Source: Shigella phage SSG23. Taken from it: a stretch of 64,000 nt of DNA. Under the pieces are notes generated by a model. The model ran no database searches and was not told the DNA's origin. It saw nothing but the letters and a program-made list of their open reading frames with translations. The stretch lies in sequence record PQ351811; one strand, given 5' to 3'. The position numbers and the translations under genes were made by a program. Positions 1,354 through 61,962 of this stretch are shown here, piece by piece (position 1 is the stretch's first letter; each line of letters begins with the position of its first letter).

Positions 1354-4032
1354 ATGTATTTTCTGTCATGTGAGCGAGTAGGTGATAAGATCTACGAGCG
1401 TTATATTGATGATGCTGGACAAGAACAAGAGCGTTACGTTGAATATACGCCAACATTATTTCATCATGCCGCGCCTGGTATGGTTACTAATTATAAAGAT
1501 ATCTATGGCAAGCCTTGCATTGCTAAAAAATTCCCATCTATGAACGAGGCCAACAAATGGCGTAAAAAGATGGGGGAAATGGGGCAAGAGGCACTAGGGA
1601 TGGATGATTTTATCATCTCCTATCTGTCTGATACATATAAAGGTGAGATTCGATATGACCGAAATAAAATCCGTGTAGCATGGGTTGATATTGAGGTCAC
1701 TGCACCGGAATTTCCTAAACCAGAAGAGGCGAAATATCCTATCGATGCAATTACGCATTATGACTCCGTACATGATCGTTTCTTTGTATTTGATTTGAAA
1801 GGAAAAAACGGTGAAATCTGGGAAGCAAGAAAGTCTATTCTTCGACCTGATATTGTAGAGCGCGTTGTTTATAACGTCTATGATACAGAAGATGAATTGC
1901 TATTAGAATACATCCGATTCTTTGAGGAAAATCGACCAGTTGGCTTCACTGGCTGGAACACAGAAACATTCGATATCCCGTATATCATTAAGCGTATCAG
2001 TAATAAGTTTGGAAGTCGAACGGCAAACCGTTTAAGCCCGTGCGGTAAGATTAAATCCCGAATCTCACAGGATGATTTTGGCAACGAGCGTGAAGCATTT
2101 ACGATCATGGGGATCGAAAGCCTTGATTACATTGACCTGTACAAGAAATTTAGCTTTACGACTCAACCAACATATGCATTAGATTATGTTGCTGAATATG
2201 AGACAGGAATCGGTAAGGTTGATTATGATGGTCCGTTAAAGAAATTGCGTGATGACAACCATCAACTTTACATCGATTATAACATCGGCGACGTTGACCG
2301 TGTGCTGGCGATTGATAAAAAACGTGGTTTTATTGATCTGGTGTATAGCCTATGTTTCTATGCAAAAATTAAATTTAACCATGTTTATAATCCGATGAAA
2401 GTATGGGATGCTATTATCTTCGGATCTCTGAAAGCAGAGGGTAAAGTAGTACCGGAAAATAAGATACAGCCTAAGCAGACTTATCCCGGCGCATTTGTAA
2501 AAGAACCTGTGCCGAATGCTTACCGTTGGATGATGAGCTTTGACTTAACAAGTCTTTATCCATCTATTATTCGACAGGTTAATATTTCGCCGGAAACTAT
2601 CGCTGGGTCTTTTGATGCTGCACCGATGCACGAGTATATCAATAAAACTGCCCCGCGTCCGAGTGATGAGTATTCTTGCTCGCCTAACGGATGGATGTAT
2701 CGAAAAGATATTCATGGTATCGTACCGATTGAGATTAAAAAGGTATTCGACCAGCGTAAGCAGTACAAAAACATGATGTTGGCATGTGATCGCAATGCTG
2801 AACTCTGTAAAGCGATTCTACACGATGAAAATCATGTTTATGGGGGAACCATTAGCTATAGCGTTGAAGTTCGTCATGACTTCGATGAAGCGTTTAAATC
2901 TATGCTTTCGGAATTGAGCAAAGATACCCTAGAAAAATTGCTGGAAGAATGTAAAGACGAGTCGATCTTGTGCAACACAAACCAGCTTTCTCGAAAAGTT
3001 TTGATCAACTCCCTTTATGGTGCGTTGGGGAATCCTAAATTCCGCTTTTATGATCTCCGTAACGCTAGTGCGATCACATTGTTTGGTCAGCTTGCAATTC
3101 AGTGGATTGAGCGTAAGATTAACGAATACTTAAACGAGCTTTGCGGAACAACTGATTTTGCATATGTTCGTTATTGTGATACTGACTCCGTTTATGTGCT
3201 GGTTAACAATGTTGTTGATAAGGTTGGCGGGGAAGACCGTTTCGACGATACCGAAAAACTTGTTGACTTCCTTGATAATTTCGGTAAGCATAGAATGGAA
3301 CCGATTATCGACAAGGGATATCGCGAGTTATGCGAGTACATGAACAACTATGAGCACTTGATGTTTATGGACCGTGAGGCAATTGCCGGACCGCCTTTGA
3401 AGTCTGCGGGTATCGGTGGATTCTGGACTGGTAAAAAGCGTTATGCTCTTAATGTTTGGGATATGGAAGGAACGCGCTTTGCTGAACCTAAGCTAAAAAT
3501 CATGGGCTTGGAAACACAACGTAGTTCTACTCCTAAAGCATGTCAGAAATCACTGAAAGAATGTATTCGTCGTATGTTGCAGGAAGGTGAAGAGTCATTG
3601 CAGGAATACTACGGTATTTTTGAGCAAGAATTTAGAAAACTTGACTATCTTGAGGTTGCTGCGGTATCATCTGCAAACAACCTACAGAAATACAGCGATT
3701 CAAACGGGTATCCGATTAAGGGTTGTCCGTATGCGGTTAAGAGTGTATTGTGTTATAATCGTAATGCTCGAAAATTCGGACTAGATCCGATTCGTGAGGG
3801 CGAGAAAGTTATGATCGTACCGCTCAAAGATCGAAATCCGTTTGGAGAAATCTGTTTTGGTTGGTTGTCTGGTACTCGTATTCCGCCAGAAATTGAATCA
3901 GAAGTGTTAAAGTGGTTAGACTGGCCTTTGTTGTTTAATAAGACTTTCGTCAAACCACTGGAGAACATTACCACGGCTGCAAAGCTGCAATATGAAAAAG
4001 TTGCTTCTCTGACTGACCTGTTTGACATTTAA
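1354..4032 (+). CDS. 43: DNA polymerase gp43 (family B)
   Basis: 892 aa from RBS-proximal ATG; long collinear similarity to T4 gp43 (YGKPCIAKKFPSMNEA, DIEV exo motif, SLYPSII, NSLYGALGN, YCDTDS pol motifs). Confidence 0.95.
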   Translation: MYFLSCERVGDKIYERYIDDAGQEQERYVEYTPTLFHHAAPGMVTNYKDIYGKPCIAKKFPSMNEANKWRKKMGEMGQEALGMDDFIISYLSDTYKGEIRYDRNKIRVAWVDIEVTAPEFPKPEEAKYPIDAITHYDSVHDRFFVFDLKGKNGEIWEARKSILRPDIVERVVYNVYDTEDELLLEYIRFFEENRPVGFTGWNTETFDIPYIIKRISNKFGSRTANRLSPCGKIKSRISQDDFGNEREAFTIMGIESLDYIDLYKKFSFTTQPTYALDYVAEYETGIGKVDYDGPLKKLRDDNHQLYIDYNIGDVDRVLAIDKKRGFIDLVYSLCFYAKIKFNHVYNPMKVWDAIIFGSLKAEGKVVPENKIQPKQTYPGAFVKEPVPNAYRWMMSFDLTSLYPSIIRQVNISPETIAGSFDAAPMHEYINKTAPRPSDEYSCSPNGWMYRKDIHGIVPIEIKKVFDQRKQYKNMMLACDRNAELCKAILHDENHVYGGTISYSVEVRHDFDEAFKSMLSELSKDTLEKLLEECKDESILCNTNQLSRKVLINSLYGALGNPKFRFYDLRNASAITLFGQLAIQWIERKINEYLNELCGTTDFAYVRYCDTDSVYVLVNNVVDKVGGEDRFDDTEKLVDFLDNFGKHRMEPIIDKGYRELCEYMNNYEHLMFMDREAIAGPPLKSAGIGGFWTGKKRYALNVWDMEGTRFAEPKLKIMGLETQRSSTPKACQKSLKECIRRMLQEGEESLQEYYGIFEQEFRKLDYLEVAAVSSANNLQKYSDSNGYPIKGCPYAVKSVLCYNRNARKFGLDPIREGEKVMIVPLKDRNPFGEICFGWLSGTRIPPEIESEVLKWLDWPLLFNKTFVKPLENITTAAKLQYEKVASLTDLFDI

Positions 4033-39822: not shown

Positions 39823-40770
39823 ATGACGTATAACCCGTTTACAAAAACTACCGCTACACTTAATGATTTCTTCGATGATCCAGAAGATAAACTGCCGGAA
39901 GGTGTGCATTTGATTGATATGTCGCAGCTTATGATTGCTACTATCTCTCATACATTTAAGCCGGAAGATCCGATTAATGAAGGTATGATTCGTCATCTTA
40001 TCCTTGACACCATGCGTTATAATATGACAAAATTCAAAGAGCAATACCCGATTACGGTACTTGCCTTTGACTCTAGCAAAGGTTACTGGCGACGTGATAT
40101 CGCACCATATTACAAACGTAACCGCAAGGAAAAGCGAGACGCAGATCCGCGTGATTGGGATATGATCTTTGCGGCGATCAATAAGATCACCGAAGAGTTT
40201 AAAGAGAACATGCCTTATCACGTTATTAAGGTTGACAAAATTGAAGCAGATGATATAATCGCTGTGTTAACTAAAAAGTTTTCTGTAGAAGGTCGCCAGG
40301 TGCTAATCAACTCCGGCGATGGTGACTACACACAGTTGCACAAATACAAAAACGTGAAACAGTGGGCACCAGTACAGAAAGCATGGAAGAAGTGCAAATA
40401 TGGTAGCCCATACAAAGACCTTATGGTAAAATGTGTTAAGGGCGACGCAAAAGACGGTGTAGCCTCTGTCAAATGTCGTAGTGATTTTATTATCTCTCGA
40501 CTGGAAGGGGAGCGAGCTAAACCAATTGCAACCAAATGGTTAGAGCAAATTTTCGATGTCGAAGATCCAAAGTCTTTGATGACAGAGGAAGAAGCACGAC
40601 GCTTTGACGAAAACCGCGAACTTATTGATTTTGAATTTATTCCTGATAACATCGAATATGAAATTTTGTTAGCCTGGGAGAAATCTAAACCAGCACCACG
40701 CGGTAAAATTTATAACTATTTTGTAACAAATGCGTTAGTTAAAATGTTGCAGAAAATTGGTGAGTTCTAA
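39823..40770 (+). CDS. rnh: RNase H / 5'-3' exonuclease (FEN family)
   Basis: 315 aa; VRHLILD, GYWRRDIAPYYK, MPYHVIKVDKIEADDIIAVL, DGDYTQLHKYKNVKQW, PRGKIYNYFV and C-terminal ..KIGEF match T4 Rnh. Confidence 0.9.
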   Translation: MTYNPFTKTTATLNDFFDDPEDKLPEGVHLIDMSQLMIATISHTFKPEDPINEGMIRHLILDTMRYNMTKFKEQYPITVLAFDSSKGYWRRDIAPYYKRNRKEKRDADPRDWDMIFAAINKITEEFKENMPYHVIKVDKIEADDIIAVLTKKFSVEGRQVLINSGDGDYTQLHKYKNVKQWAPVQKAWKKCKYGSPYKDLMVKCVKGDAKDGVASVKCRSDFIISRLEGERAKPIATKWLEQIFDVEDPKSLMTEEEARRFDENRELIDFEFIPDNIEYEILLAWEKSKPAPRGKIYNYFVTNALVKMLQKIGEF

Positions 40771-40780
40771 GGGTTGACAC

Positions 40781-41377
40781 ATGAAAGAACTTGAATTAAA
40801 ATACTATGCTCATTCACAGGAAGGTGTAGAAACAATCTGTGATTTGTGGGTGGCAATGTATGACGGGTACAATCTCATAGACCGAGATAACATATTAAAA
40901 CACGAATTTTATTATGATACCGAAGATCATGCACTGCGTCGAAAAGGAATTTATGCTCGACTTGACGTTAACAGATCATTGATCATGGTCAAAATAGGTG
41001 ATAGTGAATCTGGACTATTCAACCGAGAAGAAATTACTTTTTCAACAATGGATGATTTCTATCACTATGTTGATAGTCTAGGCGTAAACTCCGACCTTAT
41101 CGTCCCTTTACTGCAAGTTATGACATATCGCAAGTCATTGACACTTGACCTTGAGGGTGCTATAGTGGAAATGTGCAAAGACACTTTCTATTATTGCAAA
41201 GTAGGCGAAGGAATGGGCGACGCTCACTATGAACTTGAGTTCGAGTTAAAATCAGGTGATGAAAAAGCACTTGACATTATCCGAGAAATGATGCTAGAAT
41301 ATGTCGGCGATGATTTAAGTCCTAGCGAAATCTCAAAAGCTGAACGTGGTTTTCAATTAATGATTAAAGAGGGTTAA
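40781..41377 (+). CDS. CYTH-domain (triphosphate tunnel metalloenzyme) protein
   Basis: 198 aa; N-terminal ExExK (ELELKY), YYDTEDHALRRKGIYARLD, NREEIT, YELEFELK fit CYTH (CyaB/ThTPase) signature as recalled. Confidence 0.55.
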   Translation: MKELELKYYAHSQEGVETICDLWVAMYDGYNLIDRDNILKHEFYYDTEDHALRRKGIYARLDVNRSLIMVKIGDSESGLFNREEITFSTMDDFYHYVDSLGVNSDLIVPLLQVMTYRKSLTLDLEGAIVEMCKDTFYYCKVGEGMGDAHYELEFELKSGDEKALDIIREMMLEYVGDDLSPSEISKAERGFQLMIKEG

Positions 41378-41381
41378 TATT

Positions 41382-41657
41382 ATGACTGAACAGAAAAAAG
41401 AAAAAGTAGTATTTGACGAAGCAGTACACGGAAATACCCTGGCACAACTGATTAAAGAAGCCAGCGATCAGAAAACCATTCAAGAAGCATACGGCGATAA
41501 GATCAAAGAGATCAAACAGCGTGCTAAAGAAGAATTAGGAGTAGATGGTAAAATGTGGGGCATTCTGTTTAAACTGTATCACCAGCAACAGCGCGAAACC
41601 TTCGAAGCGGAACGCGATGAAGCGGTAGAACTCTATGATCGGGTGTTCAATGCTTAA
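41382..41657 (+). CDS. hypothetical protein in the dsbA position
   Basis: 91-aa ORF upstream of 33; positional only. Confidence 0.35.
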   Translation: MTEQKKEKVVFDEAVHGNTLAQLIKEASDQKTIQEAYGDKIKEIKQRAKEELGVDGKMWGILFKLYHQQQRETFEAERDEAVELYDRVFNA

Positions 41658-41904
41658 TGAACATGCGGTAAAGGCCGCGAACAAAACAGCAAACGGTCTT
41701 GCAATCGAAAAACTGGTCGTTGAAGAGGGATTGACTTATCTTGAAGCGACAACGCAGTTTGTAGAGGAAAACTCTATCGAATATGGTCACTATCAGAAAT
41801 ATATTCCGGTGTCCATTATTGACAAGATCACACAAGAATGTATAGTAAATAGAACGCTCAGGAAGGGAGTGATCGACGAACCGACCAACACTCTCGATAT
41901 TTAA
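41650..41904 (+). CDS. 33: late transcription co-activator gp33
   Basis: EKLVVEEGLTYLEATTQFVEENSI...YIPVSIIDKI and C-terminal PTNTLDI match T4 gp33; start uncertain. Confidence 0.8.
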   Translation: MLNEHAVKAANKTANGLAIEKLVVEEGLTYLEATTQFVEENSIEYGHYQKYIPVSIIDKITQECIVNRTLRKGVIDEPTNTLDI

Positions 41905-42654: not shown

Positions 42655-43596
42655 ATGTTTAAACGCCAAGATTCTTCCAAACTGCAAGCTCAACTGGCCG
42701 CACTGAAAGGTGGCAACGGTTTCTCTAAAGAAGATCCGAAAGAGTGGAAGATTAAGACTGATGCAGCAGGTAACGGTGAAGCCCTGATTCGCTTCCTGCC
42801 GTCTAAGACAGAAGACGGTCTGCCGATTGTGAAACTGGTAAACCATTCCTTCAAAGTTAATGGAAAATGGTATTGGGAAAACTGCTCCAGCACCCACGGT
42901 GATTTTGATTCTTGCCCTGTGTGCAAATATATTAACGAAAAAGATTTGTACAATACCGATAAAACCGAATGGCAACTGATCAAGCGTAAAGCGTCTTACT
43001 ACGCAAATATTCTGGTACTGAAAGATCCTCAAGCACCGGAAAACGAAGGCAAGGTATTTAAATTCCGCTTCGGTCAGAAAATTTATGATAAGATCGTTGC
43101 AATGGTGAACGTGAATACCGATATGGGCGAAGTTCCGGTCGATGTAACTTGTGTGTTCTCCGGTGCTAACTTCCTCCTGAAAGCTAAGAAGGTTGATAAA
43201 CACCAGAACTATGATGATTCTCGTTTCATGCAGCAATCACAGCTTCCGAAAATTGAAGACGAAGCATACCAGAAATATCTGATGGAAAACATGGTTGATC
43301 TGGGTGAGATTGTAGCACCTAGCCAGTTTAAACCGTTTGACGAACTGGAAACCAAATTTAAGAAAACTATGGGTGTGTCTATGGTAGCGGGTGCTGCGGC
43401 TTCCAGTGCTGCGGCGGCGATTAACAGCCAGCTTGATGATTTTGATGCTCAGATGAATGCATTCGATTCTGGTATTACCGCAGCTAGCACGGCGTCAGAT
43501 TCTTCCGCTGATGACCTGATGGCATCTCTGGACCTGGGTGGCGGTACTTCCTCCGCTTCTGATCTGGATGACCTGGATTCTCTGTTAGCGATGTAA
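42655..43596 (+). CDS. 32: single-stranded DNA-binding protein gp32
   Basis: [67 protein letters not shown] and acidic Ser/Asp-rich C-terminus match T4 gp32. Confidence 0.9.
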
Positions 43597-45108: not shown

Positions 45109-45377
45109 TGAAAATAACCATTATTCAATTATGGTCGGCTACCAGTGAAAACTACGCAGTAGCCGTAGATTATTACGGTTTACAATATCTCTATGATGAA
45201 GCGAGCGCATCATGGCTTCCGGTGCAAGAAAATAGCGATATCTCAAGACCTGCTACTGTATTCGATCCGGGCGTTGTCTTTATCAATATTGACGAGACAG
45301 TAGCAAAACTGCGTAAGAAAGCAATCAATAAGAAAAAGGTGATGTGGGATGAAAGAATATTTGAAACTATTGCGTGA
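45108..45377 (+). CDS. hypothetical protein
   Basis: 89-aa ORF; 3' end overlaps td start. Confidence 0.35.
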   Translation: MKITIIQLWSATSENYAVAVDYYGLQYLYDEASASWLPVQENSDISRPATVFDPGVVFINIDETVAKLRKKAINKKKVMWDERIFETIA

Positions 45378-46581
45378 TGTTCTTGATAATGGCTGGCCTC
45401 GTGAAGACCGAACGGGGGTAGGTACGCTCTCTAAATTCGGCGCAGAGATGCGAATTGACTTAAGCAAGGGTTTCCCCTTACTGACAACTAAAAAGATGGC
45501 TACAGCCTCTGTAATTGGCGAGTTGCTATGGTTTATGGAAGGGTCGCTGGACCGCCGTCGCTTACAGGAAATTACACGCGGTAAATTCGATGACGAAGCC
45601 TTTGATATTTGGCGCGGTAACTGTCTTGATATGAAAGAAAAGAATCCTTTGCGATTCAACGGCTATAATGTTGGCAATATGTATGGTATGGCGTGGCGAC
45701 GCAAGCCGATTCATCCACACGGTGAAATCAAAATTAAGCGCGTTAAGAGCAAATATACACATACATTTAAGCACCCGTGGGTAGAAGACTTTACGCCAAC
45801 CAACGACACAGAAGACCGTTTATGTGCTATCTGGCGTGGTATGCGTTATGAAGAGTTTGATTCTGAATATAATCAATTCTTAGTAGCAGACCACTGGAAG
45901 ACTCAATCCAATTTTGTTAATGATGCATACTGCTTGTGGGGATTCCAGGAATGGGTAGATGATGGTTATTTCGGTTATCTGCTTGATAGTGATTATCTGG
46001 GTGGGGATATGTTCGCACCGGATACCACAATCTTTGTTAATATGGACGTAGACACATCAAGCCCTAAAGACGATGAAGAATATATCTATCGCCCGAAGAT
46101 TTGGGAAGACCAGTTACAAAACGTGATTGAACAAATTAAAAATAATCCAACGGATCGCCGGATCATTATTGACTCATGGAACGTACAAGGAACACATAAT
46201 GCTGTATTAGGTGTATGTCATCCTTTCGTGCAATTCTACGTCAATGAAGGTAAACTGTCCTGTATGTGGTTTCAGCGAAGCGTAGACAGCTTTTTGGGCT
46301 TGCCCTTTAACGTCGCCAGCTATGCGCTGTTAACTCACATCATAGCGAAAATGTGCGACCTTGAGGTTGGCGAACTGATTTTCTCCGGCGGAGATACTCA
46401 CATTTACAAAAACCACTTTGACCAAGTTATGGAGCAATTAAACCGTGTTCCGTTTGATAAACCAACAATTGAGTTGCCGGAATTTAAATCTTTAGATGAG
46501 GTATTGACAAAAACTCCGAAAGACTTTAAAATTCACAACTATCAAAGCCACCCGGCAATCACCGCTCAAATGGCAGTATAA
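45349..46581 (+). CDS. td: thymidylate synthase (ThyA family) with large internal insertion
   Basis: 410 aa; both ends collinear with E. coli ThyA/T4 Td (DRTGVGTLS, FPLLTTKK, catalytic VCHPFVQFY, LGLPFNVASYALL, GGDTHIY); about 125 aa inserted after YGMAWRR. Confidence 0.85.
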   Translation: MKEYLKLLRDVLDNGWPREDRTGVGTLSKFGAEMRIDLSKGFPLLTTKKMATASVIGELLWFMEGSLDRRRLQEITRGKFDDEAFDIWRGNCLDMKEKNPLRFNGYNVGNMYGMAWRRKPIHPHGEIKIKRVKSKYTHTFKHPWVEDFTPTNDTEDRLCAIWRGMRYEEFDSEYNQFLVADHWKTQSNFVNDAYCLWGFQEWVDDGYFGYLLDSDYLGGDMFAPDTTIFVNMDVDTSSPKDDEEYIYRPKIWEDQLQNVIEQIKNNPTDRRIIIDSWNVQGTHNAVLGVCHPFVQFYVNEGKLSCMWFQRSVDSFLGLPFNVASYALLTHIIAKMCDLEVGELIFSGGDTHIYKNHFDQVMEQLNRVPFDKPTIELPEFKSLDEVLTKTPKDFKIHNYQSHPAITAQMAV

Positions 46582-46587
46582 ACAAAT

Positions 46588-46605
46588 GCGGGGAGAAATC
46601 CCCGC
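46588..46605 (+). repeat. GC-rich stem-loop GCGGGGA-gaaa-TCCCCGC
   Basis: Same stem-loop inside promoter at 49189-49206; related copies 32930, 53189, 57904. Confidence 0.5.
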
Positions 46606-46617
46606 AAGGAGTATCAA

Positions 46618-46920
46618 ATGAAAATATGCCGCGTTGTAAACAAGTACAATAGCGATTTTGATGTTAATATTCAGCGTGGTACTATGTGGGGAAATCCATA
46701 CACCGCCAAAGAATACGGACGAGAGAAAGCTATTGCATTATACAAAGAGTGGTTGTATAATAAGATTCGAAATGGTGAGATAACACGAGCGCATTTAGAA
46801 GTATTAAGACATATGCGCTTAGGTTGTACTTGCTACCCTAAGAAATGCCACGGTGAAGTATTGGCGGATCTCGTTAATAGAGTTTTCGGCGATACTCCAG
46901 AAAATACGCTTGATATATGA
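46618..46920 (+). CDS. DUF4326-family protein with gp33-like C-terminal tail
   Basis: 100 aa; GNPYT and LGCTCYPKKCHGEVL fit DUF4326 pattern as recalled; C-terminus DTPENTLDI closely matches gp33 C-terminus DEPTNTLDI. Confidence 0.5.
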   Translation: MKICRVVNKYNSDFDVNIQRGTMWGNPYTAKEYGREKAIALYKEWLYNKIRNGEITRAHLEVLRHMRLGCTCYPKKCHGEVLADLVNRVFGDTPENTLDI

Positions 46921-46931
46921 AGTGAGGTAAT

Positions 46932-49175
46932 ATGATTAAAAATGTTGTTAAGTCTTCCGGTCTGACTGTTCCGTTTGAAAAAGAAAAAGTAATGAAAATT
47001 CTGGAAGCGGCAGCCGAAGGTCATAACGTTGATCCATATGAATTGTTTGATATGGTTGAACCGCTTCTGACAGAAGGTATGTCTACCAACGATATCCAGA
47101 AAGTATTGATTAAGGTCGCCGCAGATAACATTACTGTAGAAACACCTGATTATCAATATGTAGCAAGTAACCTTGCAATGTTCGCGCTTCGTAAATCAGT
47201 ATATGGTCAATTCCAACCGATTGATTTTTACAGCCATATTGAGCGTAATATTGCAACCGGAAAATATGATCGCGAAATTCTGCAAAAGTATTCCCGTGAA
47301 GAAGTGGAATATCTGGAGAAATTCATCGATCATAAACTTGATTTTAAAATGACCTATGCTGGTGCGATGCAGTTAAAAGAGAAATATCTTGTTCAGGATC
47401 GCAGCACTAAGAAAATCATTGAAACACCGCAATTTGCGTATATGCTGATCGGTATGTGCTTACATCAAGAAGAGACAGAAAATCGACTTGAACATGTGAT
47501 TGATTTTTATAATGCTGTTGCGAATAAGCAAATTTCTCTGCCTACTCCGATTATGGCGGGTGTGCGTACCCCGACACGACAATTTAGTTCGTGTGTGGTG
47601 ATTGAAAGTGATGACTCATTGCAGGGCATCAATGAAACAGCAAATGCAATCATCAAGTATATTAGTAAGCGTGCTGGTATCGGCATCAATGCTGGTATGA
47701 TTCGCGCGGAAGGATCTAAGATCGGGCATGGTGAAGTTCGTCATACTGGCGTTATCCCGTTCTGGAAACATTTTCAGACTGCCGTTAAGTCATGTTCACA
47801 AGGCGGTATTCGTGGCGGGGCAGCGACTCTCTATTACCCAATGTGGCATTTAGAGTTTGAAAGTCTTATTGTGTTGAAGAACAACAAAGGGGTAGAAGAT
47901 AACCGCATCCGTCATCTTGATTACGGCGTACAGATTAATAACCTGATGGTAGAGCGATTCCTTAAACGCGATTACATTACTCTGTTTAGTCCAGATGTTG
48001 CGGGTGGCTTGTTGTGGGATCTGTACTTCCGAGATGAGGAAGGATTCCGCCAGCTTTACGAAAAACTGGAAAAAGATCCGAGTGTGCGTAAAACTCGTGT
48101 TAAAGCCGAAGACCTGTTTTTAGCGGTGGCAATTGAACGTTTTAACACTGGTCGAATCTATCCAGCGTTCACAGACAACATGAACAATCACGGGGCGTTT
48201 ATTCGTAATGTAGCACCGATTAAACAATCTAACCTGTGTTGTGAAATTGCTCTGCCGACAAAACCGATGGGTCGTGATGATTCAGAGATCAGCCTATGCA
48301 CTTTGGCAGCATATGTTTTAGGTAATTTCGATATCGAAAACATGGAAGAAGTAGAACGCATTGCTATGGTTATGGTGCGTGCGCTTGACAACTTGTTAGA
48401 TTATCAGGATTATCCTGTAAAACAAGCACTGACAGCCAAAAAACGTCGCTCTCTGGGTGTTGGCGTGACTAACTTTGCATCATATCTGGCGGATAATTTC
48501 TTCACATATGAAGACGCTAACGAGTTTACGCATAAAACGTTTGAACGCTTGCAATATGCTCTGATTAAGGCTAGTGTGCAACTGGCTAAAGAGAAGGGTG
48601 CTTGCGAACTGATGCACGAAACACGTTATGGTCGCGGTGAACTTCCTATTGACTGGTACAAAAAGACAGTAGATGAACTGGTTGATCCGGTGTATGAGAT
48701 GGATTGGGAAGAACTGCGCGAAGACCTGAAAAAATATGGCATTCGTAACAGTACGCTTTCGGCGCTGATGCCTTGTGAGTCGTCTTCTCAGGTGTCTAAC
48801 AGCACAAACGGTATTGAACCGCCTCGCGGGATTGTATCGGTTAAAGGATCAAAGGAAGGACAATTTAATCAGGTTATTCCGAACGTAGAGAATAATGCTG
48901 ATGTTATTGACCTGCTTTGGACACTGATCAAGAAAGGTAACAAGCCTTATCTGACACTGGCAGCGATCATGCAGAAGTTTGTAGATCAGGCGATTAGTTC
49001 CAATACATCCTACGATCCAAGCACTTATAAGACTGGTAAAGTCGATATTGCTGATGTATTAGATGATATGTTGTTTGCTCAATATTACGGCCTCAAGACA
49101 CTGTATTACGCTAACGTGCGTGATGGTGCTGATGGTACGGAAGACGCTAGCGAATGTTCATCTTGCAAACTGTAA
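46932..49175 (+). CDS. nrdA: ribonucleotide reductase large subunit NrdA (class Ia)
   Basis: 747 aa; N-terminal ATP-cone, active-site region NLCCEI, C-terminal CxxC tail (CSSCKL). Confidence 0.9.
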   Translation: MIKNVVKSSGLTVPFEKEKVMKILEAAAEGHNVDPYELFDMVEPLLTEGMSTNDIQKVLIKVAADNITVETPDYQYVASNLAMFALRKSVYGQFQPIDFYSHIERNIATGKYDREILQKYSREEVEYLEKFIDHKLDFKMTYAGAMQLKEKYLVQDRSTKKIIETPQFAYMLIGMCLHQEETENRLEHVIDFYNAVANKQISLPTPIMAGVRTPTRQFSSCVVIESDDSLQGINETANAIIKYISKRAGIGINAGMIRAEGSKIGHGEVRHTGVIPFWKHFQTAVKSCSQGGIRGGAATLYYPMWHLEFESLIVLKNNKGVEDNRIRHLDYGVQINNLMVERFLKRDYITLFSPDVAGGLLWDLYFRDEEGFRQLYEKLEKDPSVRKTRVKAEDLFLAVAIERFNTGRIYPAFTDNMNNHGAFIRNVAPIKQSNLCCEIALPTKPMGRDDSEISLCTLAAYVLGNFDIENMEEVERIAMVMVRALDNLLDYQDYPVKQALTAKKRRSLGVGVTNFASYLADNFFTYEDANEFTHKTFERLQYALIKASVQLAKEKGACELMHETRYGRGELPIDWYKKTVDELVDPVYEMDWEELREDLKKYGIRNSTLSALMPCESSSQVSNSTNGIEPPRGIVSVKGSKEGQFNQVIPNVENNADVIDLLWTLIKKGNKPYLTLAAIMQKFVDQAISSNTSYDPSTYKTGKVDIADVLDDMLFAQYYGLKTLYYANVRDGADGTEDASECSSCKL

Positions 49176-58140: not shown

Positions 58141-58609
58141 AATTGATATCTATGCGGGTGGACCTTATCCATCTGGCGAGTTGAGTAATTTCAATAAAAG
58201 ACCATTCCGTCTATTTGGTTGCGATATTAACAGCACAGAAGGATTTTTACAGGGGCTAAGATTTAAGAACCCTCAGAGACAAAGAGAAATCTTTTTGATG
58301 CACGGTGGCAAAGCAAAAAGAACCGGAAGGACTGAAAAGATAGAGAATCACATGCTATATTTTCAGGGTCGCCCGATTCATCGAATGAGTGAGCATTATT
58401 ACAGACTGGTACATCTGGCATTTGTTACGATGGCACGGAATAACCCAGAATTTTGTAAAGCATTACTCGCTACCGGAAATAAGAAATTGCGTCATAGCAT
58501 AGGTGGAACTGATCCGTTAAAGACCATATTGACCGAATCGGAATTTTGTAGTATCCTCAATGATATTCGTGAACGTTTAACAAAACGAGGTGAAAATGTC
58601 AATTCTTAA
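58130..58609 (+). CDS. NADAR-like (YbiA/DUF1768 family) protein
   Basis: 159 aa; ELSNF, STEGFLQGLRF (cf. YbiA DFSNF...TSEHYFQAQKF), KALLATGNKKL fit NADAR pattern as recalled. Confidence 0.5.
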   Translation: MTSEIDIYAGGPYPSGELSNFNKRPFRLFGCDINSTEGFLQGLRFKNPQRQREIFLMHGGKAKRTGRTEKIENHMLYFQGRPIHRMSEHYYRLVHLAFVTMARNNPEFCKALLATGNKKLRHSIGGTDPLKTILTESEFCSILNDIRERLTKRGENVNS

Positions 58610-60092
58610 TATCATTAATCAGCTTGCAGCGACCGACAAAACATCGCTGAAAGAAAAGATCCTGAAAGAATCTGCAAGCAATGAAACGCTGAAAGAATGC
58701 TTTTATCTGGCATATTGCAAACAGGTTACGTTTGGCGTAAAGAAATACGATAAACCGTCGCGTTATTCATCTGTGTTGTCTTTATCCGGTGCATTACAGG
58801 TCTTTAAAAATAAACTTGCCACGCGTCAAGTAACTGGTAATGCCGCATTACAGCTAGTTACCGATACTCTGACTTGCTTGTCAGAAGATGATGCTAAAGT
58901 TGCAATGATGGTCCTGAATCGTGATCTGGAATGCGGTTGTTCCGCTACCACAGCAAACAAGGTATGGAAGAAGCTGATTCCTCAGCAGCCGTGCCATCTT
59001 GCATCGTCATGTTCTGATAAGACTATTGCCAATATCAAATATCCGGCGTATGCACAACTTAAAAGCGATGGCGCTCGTGGTATGGCTGATATTGACGGGG
59101 AAACATTAGCAATCTATACCCGTTCAGGTAATACCTATCAGGGGCTGGATGATTTGTTTGCTGTTTTAGAGCGTCTACGAGGCCGTGGAGTTGTTTTAGA
59201 TGGTGAGTTGGTATATATGCCTACCCTTTCGCAAACACCAGCGCAGAACTTCGTTGATAGCGTTTATGATGGTACTCTGTCATGGATATTTGAAGAAGAG
59301 GAAATGCCATTAACGCCAGTAGCGGAAGCAGTGAAAGAATCAGTTGTTGCAGATCGTCAGACCGGAAATGGTATCCTTAACAAATCACTGAAAGGAACTA
59401 TTCCGAAAGAAGAAGCCCAATGTATTGTATACACCGTCTGGGATGTTATCGACCGTGATGTGTATTACGGAAACGAGAAAGCAACGAAGCAGTATAAAGA
59501 TCGATTTGAGGAACTAAAACAGATTGTTGAAGAACTTAACGATCCTCGTGTTCAGATAATCGAAAATACTGTAGTTAACAATATCGATGAGGCTCGCGAA
59601 GTATATCATCGCTATGTAAACATGGGATTAGAAGGTATTATCCTTAAAAATTTACATGGTGTATTTGAAGATCGTCGCAGTAAAGATCAGGTTAAATTTA
59701 AAGAAGTGATTGACTTCGACGCGGAAATTGTTGATGTATATCCGCATAGTAAAGATCCTAACAAGGTAGGCGGTTTTACTGTCCGTAGTGCGTGCGGACG
59801 AATGACGACTAACACCGGATCGGGATTGACCGACACCACAACCGAAAAAGATGATGATGGTATTGAACGTGTAATTCCGTTCGATCGTCGAAATGAACTC
59901 GACCGAGAAATGTTATGGGCTGACCGTCATAACCTGATTGGAAAAGTCATTGAGATGACATGCAACGGGTATATCCGCAGCAAATCACGTAAAGAAGATG
60001 AACCGGAGTTCTCTTTATTTCTCCCGATCATCAAACGTATTCGCTACGACAAGACCACTGCAAATACAGTAAAAGAGGTATTCGATGTGTGA
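58596..60092 (+). CDS. 30: ATP-dependent DNA ligase gp30
   Basis: NRDLECG, ANKVW, YPAYAQLKSDGARG (ligase KxDG), VLDGELVY, GIANKSLKGTI, EGIILKN, KFKEV match T4 gp30. Confidence 0.9.
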   Translation: MSILNIINQLAATDKTSLKEKILKESASNETLKECFYLAYCKQVTFGVKKYDKPSRYSSVLSLSGALQVFKNKLATRQVTGNAALQLVTDTLTCLSEDDAKVAMMVLNRDLECGCSATTANKVWKKLIPQQPCHLASSCSDKTIANIKYPAYAQLKSDGARGMADIDGETLAIYTRSGNTYQGLDDLFAVLERLRGRGVVLDGELVYMPTLSQTPAQNFVDSVYDGTLSWIFEEEEMPLTPVAEAVKESVVADRQTGNGILNKSLKGTIPKEEAQCIVYTVWDVIDRDVYYGNEKATKQYKDRFEELKQIVEELNDPRVQIIENTVVNNIDEAREVYHRYVNMGLEGIILKNLHGVFEDRRSKDQVKFKEVIDFDAEIVDVYPHSKDPNKVGGFTVRSACGRMTTNTGSGLTDTTTEKDDDGIERVIPFDRRNELDREMLWADRHNLIGKVIEMTCNGYIRSKSRKEDEPEFSLFLPIIKRIRYDKTTANTVKEVFDV

Positions 60093-61726: not shown

Positions 61727-61731
61727 AGTTG

Positions 61732-61760
61732 TTGACAGGGGATCACAGATCCCCTATAAT
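61732..61760 (+). promoter_or_regulatory. PeSL-type promoter TTGACA-[GGGGATCacaGATCCCC]-TATAAT
   Basis: Palindromic spacer 61738-61754 with two GATC sites. Confidence 0.6.
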
Positions 61761-61794
61761 GCACACATACCAACGAGATATAGGAGAATCAAAA

Positions 61795-61962
61795 ATGTTC
61801 CAGACTAAAGAAGAATGTGAAGCATACATTGTAGCAAACCACGGTGAAGACTACCTGAAATTCGATATCGTAGTAGCACAGAAGATCACCGGAATGGTTG
61901 CAAAATATCTGGGTGTTAAAGAAGGTTACTATCCGAGCAACGCACCAGAAATTAACAAATAA
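61795..61962 (+). CDS. hypothetical protein
   Basis: 55-aa ORF from RBS-proximal ATG. Confidence 0.35.
   Translation: MFQTKEECEAYIVANHGEDYLKFDIVVAQKITGMVAKYLGVKEGYYPSNAPEINK

Follow-up and report, generated by a model that had tools for sequence, protein, structure and literature searches.

Why does a protein of 100 amino acids, encoded between two nucleotide-synthesis genes of a T4-like phage, end in nearly the same peptide as the late-transcription co-activator gp33? Among sliding clamps, gp45 of T4 is the textbook example of one that serves both replication and transcription, and its accepted clients are few: the polymerase, the clamp loader, gp33, gp55, DNA ligase and RNase H. The hydrophobic-acidic C-termini of T4 gp43, gp33 and gp55 are, as an earlier note on this DNA had rightly stated, established gp45-binding motifs; they are interchangeable and follow short or variable linkers, and the motif of gp33 is essential, its clamp contact being required for activation (PMC2988020; PMC7892883). 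The same note had proposed that the small protein is recruited to the clamp by its own tail, at replication forks or at late promoters. This proposal is examined here on a window of 64,000 nucleotides from Shigella phage SSG23 (PQ351811). Genome-wide open reading frame (ORF) counts were made on Shigella phage SFHK24 (PQ351812.1), an RB49-like Krischvirus that matches the window with 100% identity (subtracting 76161 from a record position gives the window position).

The ORF at 46618-46920 (+), stop codon included, is flanked by td (45349-46581) on one side and nrdA (46932-49175) on the other and encodes 100 amino acids with the C-terminus ...VNRVFGDTPENTLDI. Its product matches the Pfam DUF4326 profile (PF14216) with an E-value of 6.5e-23 and a score of 81.6 bits (gathering cut-off 25), residues 4-83 covering profile positions 1-81 of 82; ORF and profile thus confirm the presence of a 100-aa DUF4326 protein ending in DTPENTLDI between these two genes. 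The homologous ORF of the T4-type phage RB10, located between nrdA.2 and nrdA, is annotated nrdA.1, and on the strength of this shared position and homology the window ORF is taken as the Krischvirus ortholog of T4 NrdA.1. The two forms share 55-60% identity. The td/nrdA-cluster synteny extends to loci L112-L114, and nrdA.1 adjoins nrdA in most T4-like phages, Aeromonas phage 65 and the metagenomic locus L126 being cases where it lies elsewhere. Near-identical proteins (98-100% identity) occur in 6 phage records, and at a threshold of 99% identity the gene is carried by only 6.

Genome comparison found nrdA.1 missing from RB49 and most Krischvirus genomes, so any role of its product must be dispensable. 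In RB49 the difference is a clean indel, roughly 300 bp long (window 46582-46931 compared with RB49 locus L135 2550-2617), bounded by the end of the hairpin downstream of td and by the ribosome-binding site of nrdA. This GC-rich hairpin (46587-46606) sits in the gap between td and nrdA.1, at the upstream edge of the segment missing in RB49. The RB49 sequence retains ..ATATGAA ahead of GTGAGG, which resembles the 3' end of nrdA.1. A sigma-70-type promoter-like site, TTGACA-17-TAAAAT (46504-46532, +), which precedes nrdA.1 and falls within the 3' end of td, matches the consensus at 11 of 12 positions; promoter-like sites near the gene are no more numerous than in shuffled sequences. The neighbourhood shows two further peculiarities. 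The td product has 410 aa, its relatives ranging from 401 to 522 aa with a form of 282 aa in locus L127, a size spread that suggests a large insertion, some 120 aa long, in the thymidylate synthase. Between rnh and dsbA, an interval devoid of genes in RB10, the window encodes a CYTH-domain protein of 198 aa (40781-41377; Pfam E-value 1.5e-06).

The proteins to which the NrdA.1 tail must be compared are encoded by the same phage. The late-transcription co-activator gp33 (41635-41904, +; Pfam Trans_coact, E-value 1.8e-26) ends in ...GVIDEPTNTLDI, its tail DEPTNTLDI being encoded by positions 41875-41901; the earlier note had read this tail correctly and placed the start at 41650, which is an internal methionine, an error without effect on the tail. 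The DNA polymerase gp43 (1354-4032, +), 57% identical to T4-type gp43, ends in ...EKVASLTDLFDI, with the tail ASLTDLFDI encoded by 4003-4029, and the LTDLFDI terminus previously attributed to it is correct. Outside the window, gp55 of this phage ends in ..PSLDQFYEIEN, and a gp45-type clamp of 228 aa is encoded just upstream of the window. The T4-type tails were confirmed in RB10: ASLDFLFG for gp43, TNTLDFLL for gp33 and PSLDFLYEAND for gp55.

When ..GDTPENTLDI of NrdA.1 is set against ..IDEPTNTLDI of gp33, seven of the last nine residues and all five terminal ones are identical; with ..ASLTDLFDI of gp43 the -DI end is shared. The C-terminal nonapeptides of 259 ORFs from the complete phage genome were compared in all 33,411 pairs, and this match is the best between unrelated proteins. 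The sole higher-scoring pair consists of two small ORFs both ending in PSNAPEINK (window 61729-61962, and PQ351812.1 141210-141377 outside the window), which are apparently paralogs. The corresponding NrdA.1 and gp33 DNA segments agree at 15 of 27 bases and use different codons at 6 of the 7 identical residues; the similarity is therefore kept at the protein level, as the earlier note had asserted. Two other origins of the match were considered and ruled out: a recent transfer of DNA from one tail to the other, by these same base and synonymous codon differences, and a constraint on the tail codons from a ribosome-binding site or gene overlap, by the location of both stop codons ahead of the ribosome-binding site of the next gene.

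Short acidic tails could resemble one another by chance or by composition, or the tail could serve the fold or the stability of the DUF4326 domain, and in either case the resemblance would be without function. Column shuffling, repeated 200 times, gave a genome-wide maximum identity of 5 in 169 cases, 6 in 26 and 4 in 5; the observed 7 of 9 was never reached. Furthermore, an [LFW]DI terminus is found in exactly 5 of the 259 SFHK24 ORFs (positions 6001-168820 scanned), namely gp43, gp33, NrdA.1, a DNA methyltransferase and a DprA/SLOG-like protein; of these, two are established clamp ligands, and annotation or predicted role links the remaining three to nucleotides or DNA.

The distribution of the tail bears on the same alternative. 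DUF4326 proteins from viral contigs that are not T4-like showed no tail and end near the core at ..CHGDVLAxLVxxx, and an Ackermannviridae homolog carries an unrelated basic tail. In T4-like phages NrdA.1 continues past the core for some 10 flexible residues that include a hydrophobic-acidic motif. This extension is particular to these phages, and its absence elsewhere shows that the DUF4326 fold can do without it. Within the last nine residues, 91 of the 116 distinct NrdA.1 tails from T4-like phages have a hydrophobic-[DE]-(x)-hydrophobic arrangement. Counted over the distinct tails in the T4-like loci that were fetched, the same loose pattern is present in 94% of NrdA.1, 100% of gp33, 72% of gp32 and 3% of NrdB tails, and in 16% of those of all other proteins. 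Scored solely against polymerase and gp55 tails, NrdA.1 ranks third among the gene families of the neighbourhood, after gp32 and gp33, with a median of 19 as opposed to 12 in the background (Mann-Whitney p 6.6e-19). A resemblance without function retains some arguments, since 16% of the other proteins fit the loose pattern, the T4-type NrdA.1 tail is non-canonical and RB49 dispenses with the gene; but the shuffles, the small set of [LFW]DI proteins, the tailless homologs, the frequency of the motif in NrdA.1 and, against a role in folding, the modelling of the tail as a lower-confidence coil by AlphaFold2 (AF2) make it improbable.

A tail lost from the orthologs, which the earlier note had named as a refutation, is not what the comparison shows: most orthologs keep a hydrophobic-acidic motif, and the exact gp33-like sequence is confined to a small clade. 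The NrdA.1 tail resembles different clamp ligands in different lineages. In SFHK24, ENTLDI has its counterparts in gp33 TNTLDI and gp43 LTDLFDI; in locus L114, ENILDMI stands beside gp33 TNTLDI, and in L112, DTPLDIIEVMND (DTPLDII..) beside gp33 ETPVILDI. Aeromonas phage 65 combines EPSLDKLFDI with gp43 VSLEDLFDF, the Aeh1 group THTELDI or TYTGLDI with gp43 ASLSDLFGDM, and metagenomic phage L126 the canonical T4 form KINNLDFLI with gp33 LSLNFLM. Muldoon-like phages (L033/L040) carry TTLEDI and a gp33 ending in TNTLEDLL, the 44RR group VPSVDDFI and NSLDFLM, respectively, while in L028/L077 NrdA.1 DEFTIEDL is found with gp43 ATLDDILGW. A search of other T4-like genomes for tailed DUF4326 proteins, as the earlier note had suggested, thus yielded forms that read as canonical, NNLDFLI and SLDKLFDI among them.

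The correspondence has its limits. Strict co-variation of the NrdA.1 and gp33 tails was not found among the loci compared, as is evident from L113, where NrdA.1 ends in ...NVLDI and gp33 in ...NTLEFLM. Some orthologs have very short tails, such as NDKIYL and DSIL, and NTLDI itself, with just two hydrophobic residues, falls short of the polymerase-type motif in length. Most Tevenvirinae carry FKDxFx[LIV]EDL(Cx); the T4-type tail FKDDFQVEDLCN (FQVEDLCN in T4 proper) is non-canonical, in contrast to GDTPENTLDI in the window, and when ranked against the four established LDFL motifs it came 32nd of 280 ORFs, indistinguishable from background. The claim of clamp recruitment made in the earlier note is consequently upheld in part: conservation of the tail and its lineage-specific likenesses argue for it, while the rank of the T4-type tail and the L113 mismatch weigh against it. 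As for recruitment to late promoters, the shared gp33 motif speaks in its favour and nothing beyond that motif was found to do so.

Three side observations were made on related termini. In the T4-type census, the best non-canonical LDFL match among proteins of known function is the RB10 ADP-ribosyltransferase ModA (KM606999.1 12084-12686), which ends in ..YTLDFEGFNL. In Aeromonas phage Aeh1, the 183-aa protein Aeh1p026, annotated 'clamp loader of DNA polymerase' (L125 14534-15085, -), ends in ..KAKTLDI, the same type of terminus as that of Aeh1 NrdA.1, ..THTELDI. Finally, gp33 of Aeromonas phage 65 (L123 29288-29757) is annotated at 61 aa only; because the frame just downstream reads ..QDNNLDFLFTQ, the record probably contains a frameshift that removes the clamp-binding tail.

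Resemblance to a clamp motif leads to another question, that of the partner. The main rival to clamp docking is that the NrdA.1 tail mimics the acidic C-terminal tip of gp32 and docks to a replisome component other than the clamp, such as the polymerase, the helicase loader, the primase or others; chance, a purely competitive role and mimicry of NrdB are less likely. The A-domain of gp32 is already known to mediate interactions with other proteins (PMC3012046). The tips of gp32 in the window (42655-43596) and in loci L005-L050 score as high as gp33 against the polymerase and gp55 motifs (median 22), and in most Tevenvirinae the NrdA.1 tail is nearer to the gp32 tail of its own genome than to gp33. 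Over 25 distinct genomes, the best match of the NrdA.1 tail within the locus is the gp32 tail in 12, as in the pair FSLEDL (NrdA.1) and GLDDLLAGL (gp32). In the window the trend is the reverse: the NrdA.1 tail scores 36 with gp33 and 10 with gp32 and lacks the likeness to the gp32 tip. Moreover, gp32 of phage 65 ends in ..EKESAPSKE, whereas its NrdA.1 tail is polymerase-like, and the L126 tail is a canonical LDFL. The T4-type gp32 tip ..DLDDLLNDL is itself close to some polymerase tails (ATLDDILGW), and the LDDL type recurs at the RNase H N-terminus (SVLDDLLG), for which a clamp role follows from homology; owing to these occurrences, gp32-type and clamp-type tails perhaps do not form separate classes. 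We know of no documented case of a gp32 tail acting as a clamp ligand, and the likeness raises the question of whether the gp32 tip could also bind the clamp. On balance, docking of NrdA.1 to a gp32-tail partner appears unlikely, if less so than the other alternatives.

The position of the gene next to nrdA in most T4-like phages invites yet another comparison, with the small subunit of ribonucleotide reductase. The tails of class Ia R2 proteins bind R1, and NrdA.1 could in principle mimic the C-terminal peptide of NrdB to bind its neighbour NrdA, the more so as phage 65 NrdB ends in ..SKLDI. In the window and its relatives, however, NrdB ends in ..DDDYNRFGKYL, ..AYTRFDKFKDSLK or ..SYESFKEFL, which do not resemble NrdA.1 tails, and the gene is apart from nrdA in phage 65 and L126. 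With a window NrdB ending in ..TDDDYNRFGKYL and a motif frequency of 3% among NrdB tails, this mimicry was rejected as highly improbable.

The body to which the tail is attached comprises a DUF4326 core of 89 residues (46618-46884, +), folded in the AF2 model with a mean pLDDT of 94.4 and closed by a last helix at residues 78-89. Alignment of homologs reveals invariant positions including D15, R20, G25, N26, C70, C72, P74, C77, H78 and G79; this polar and cysteine set is common to the tailless DUF4326 proteins. The core looks like an enzyme: it is compact and has invariant Cys, His, Arg and Asp residues. Then follow a junction and a short Gly/Pro linker, F90 and G91-D-T-P-E95 (46885-46902, +), modelled as coil, in which F90 and D92 are kept and other positions vary, and the terminal pentapeptide NTLDI (46903-46917, +), identical to the end of gp33 and a candidate sliding-clamp-binding motif. 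The last 10 residues have a mean pLDDT of 75, with five residues of the model in the 50-70 band. Fold searches with NrdA.1 gave no informative solved relative; in BFVD the matches were only other DUF4326 proteins and fusions, and Foldseek returned a DUF2493 protein. In other viruses, DUF4326 domains are fused to SLOG/DUF2493, Macro or NADAR domains and to replication or restriction-modification components (PMC7824862; PMC9503650). Published domain-fusion analysis from the Aravind laboratory proposed a phosphatase-like enzyme whose substrates would be the ribose-linked phosphates in NAD- or ADP-ribose-derived molecules, and DUF4326 has been proposed to belong to a rhodanese-phosphatase superfamily. 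Phosphate processing on ADP-ribose-type substrates is thus a published prediction for the core, which we adopt with considerable reserve. No report on the function of NrdA.1 was found in the searchable literature, nor any paper linking NrdA.1 or DUF4326 to gp45 in the searchable literature library, in keeping with the remark in the earlier note that such a link was unreported.

The enzyme-like appearance of the core also bears on the possibility that NrdA.1 is mainly a competitor or regulator, which by occupying the clamp site would tune late transcription or polymerase loading, its core being no enzyme on DNA-linked substrates. Its terminal pentapeptide is that of gp33, which must contact the clamp for activation to occur (PMC2988020), and the protein is small with a short linker. 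Since the invariant polar and cysteine residues persist in DUF4326 proteins that have no tail, and since the tails of other lineages are polymerase-like rather than gp33-like, a role limited to competition seems doubtful.

We thus favour, with a probability of roughly 0.6, the reading in which NTLDI is a gp45-docking peptide that would bring a small enzyme of the DUF4326 type to phage DNA loaded with the clamp. In this arrangement the compact domain of residues 1-89 would be followed by a five-residue Gly/Pro linker and then by NTLDI, which would act as a sliding-clamp-binding motif and tether the domain to gp45. The AF2 architecture, a confident core with a lower-confidence C-terminal coil, reproduces the linker-plus-motif plan of gp33 and gp55 (PMC7892883; PMC2988020). 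Clamp docking is plausible from the termini compared here, and NrdA.1 is probably a new gp45 client of a known docking system; both its binding to gp45 and its site of action, at forks or on other clamp-loaded DNA, are what we infer from these likenesses. Once tethered, the core could act together with another protein of this phage that ends in LDI, the DprA/SLOG-like one.

That protein (phrog_768; PQ351812.1 163536-164123, L130 35537-36124, +) is encoded outside the window and has the tail SDLSWLDI. It is found in 58 records at a threshold of at least 95% identity, and its relatives in loci L131-L133 end in PPTLDFLW (Slopekvirus Roth26), SPKFDIFSL (Jiaodavirus) and VLEKVDIFNL (an Aeromonas phage). 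Because DUF4326-SLOG fusions exist in other viruses, NrdA.1 and the DprA/SLOG-like protein of SFHK24 may work together. The remaining [LFW]DI protein, also outside the window, is an N6-type DNA methyltransferase of 279 aa (PQ351812.1 19645-20484, L129 13645-14484, -), whose tail GTLSDLFDI is preceded by a long acidic/Pro linker and shares 6 of 9 residues with the polymerase tail, the two being closer at the DNA level (19 of 27 bases) than the NrdA.1 and gp33 tails. Bacterial homologs of 235-245 aa are tailless and stop at ..CEVVTVEY, while the methyltransferases of T4-like phages possess the linker and GTL[ST]DLFDI, GSLSMFDI or TLDFVDFSEI. A further homolog, P0239, of unchecked origin, ends in QQLDLFGEAA, in which QLDLF is presumably a bacterial beta-clamp motif, and the enzyme of another phage group ends in ..LFTFRIE. 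The addition of putative clamp motifs to accessory enzymes would therefore be recurring, and the same docking peptide appears to have been gained by three further T4-like families, DUF4326/NrdA.1, the DprA/SLOG-like proteins and the N6-type methyltransferases.

Taken jointly, these tails could reflect a larger T4-type clamp toolbelt, in which NrdA.1 and the DprA/SLOG-like protein would form a clamp-tethered pair acting on replicating DNA or on nucleotides at the fork, and a clamp-tethered methyltransferase would modify nascent DNA; this extended scheme is speculative and we consider it rather unlikely as a whole. An example of a role for the pair would be the removal of NAD- or ADP-ribose-derived adducts as a counter-defence; another would be a physical link between the replisome and the nucleotide-synthesis enzymes encoded in the surroundings. 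If docking is real, the set of gp45 clients would grow by the three families, and DUF4326, a widespread domain that comparative genomics ties to NAD/ADP-ribose conflicts and to replication, would receive its first functional handle. The location of nrdA.1 among td, frd and nrdAB bears as well on the coupling of nucleotide-synthesis enzymes to T4 replication forks, an old question reportedly pursued by Mathews and colleagues.

Two enzymes of the window provide reference examples of the local motif. In T4 DNA ligase the contact with gp45 is made by an internal loop, EPEGLDFLFD, seen in a crystal structure (PDB 6DRT), the peptide having a Kd of about 10 uM with four hydrophobic residues buried (PMC6212786). 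In the window ligase (58596-60092) we infer, from position and sequence rather than from an alignment, that the loop GTLSWIFEEEE (residues 226-236; 59271-59303, +) is its positional counterpart. The window ligase has in addition a second hydrophobic-acidic terminus, ..NTVKEVFDV. The N-terminal peptide of T4 RNase H binds gp45 (PMC3012046) and, by homology, TATLNDFFDD of the window RNase H (39823-40770; residues 10-19; 39850-39879, +) is probably a clamp-binding peptide.

Compared to gp33, gp43 and gp55, NrdA.1 likewise has a short C-terminal hydrophobic-acidic peptide, a short flexible linker and a folded body. It differs from them in its carrier, an enzyme-like DUF4326 domain instead of a polymerase or a transcription factor, and LDFL-type motifs are longer than its NTLDI. 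T4 NrdA.1 has the domain and the locus in common with the window ortholog and another tail. T4 DNA ligase offers the precedent of an accessory DNA enzyme that gained a gp45 motif independently; its motif is internal, in a loop that is an insertion in the nucleotidyltransferase domain, and experimentally validated, whereas the candidate motif of NrdA.1 is C-terminal. More broadly, the PIP-box clients of PCNA and the QLxLF clients of the bacterial beta clamp form comparable clamp toolbelts: there too, diverse enzymes reach a sliding clamp by means of a portable short linear motif, although the clamp family and the motif consensus are different.
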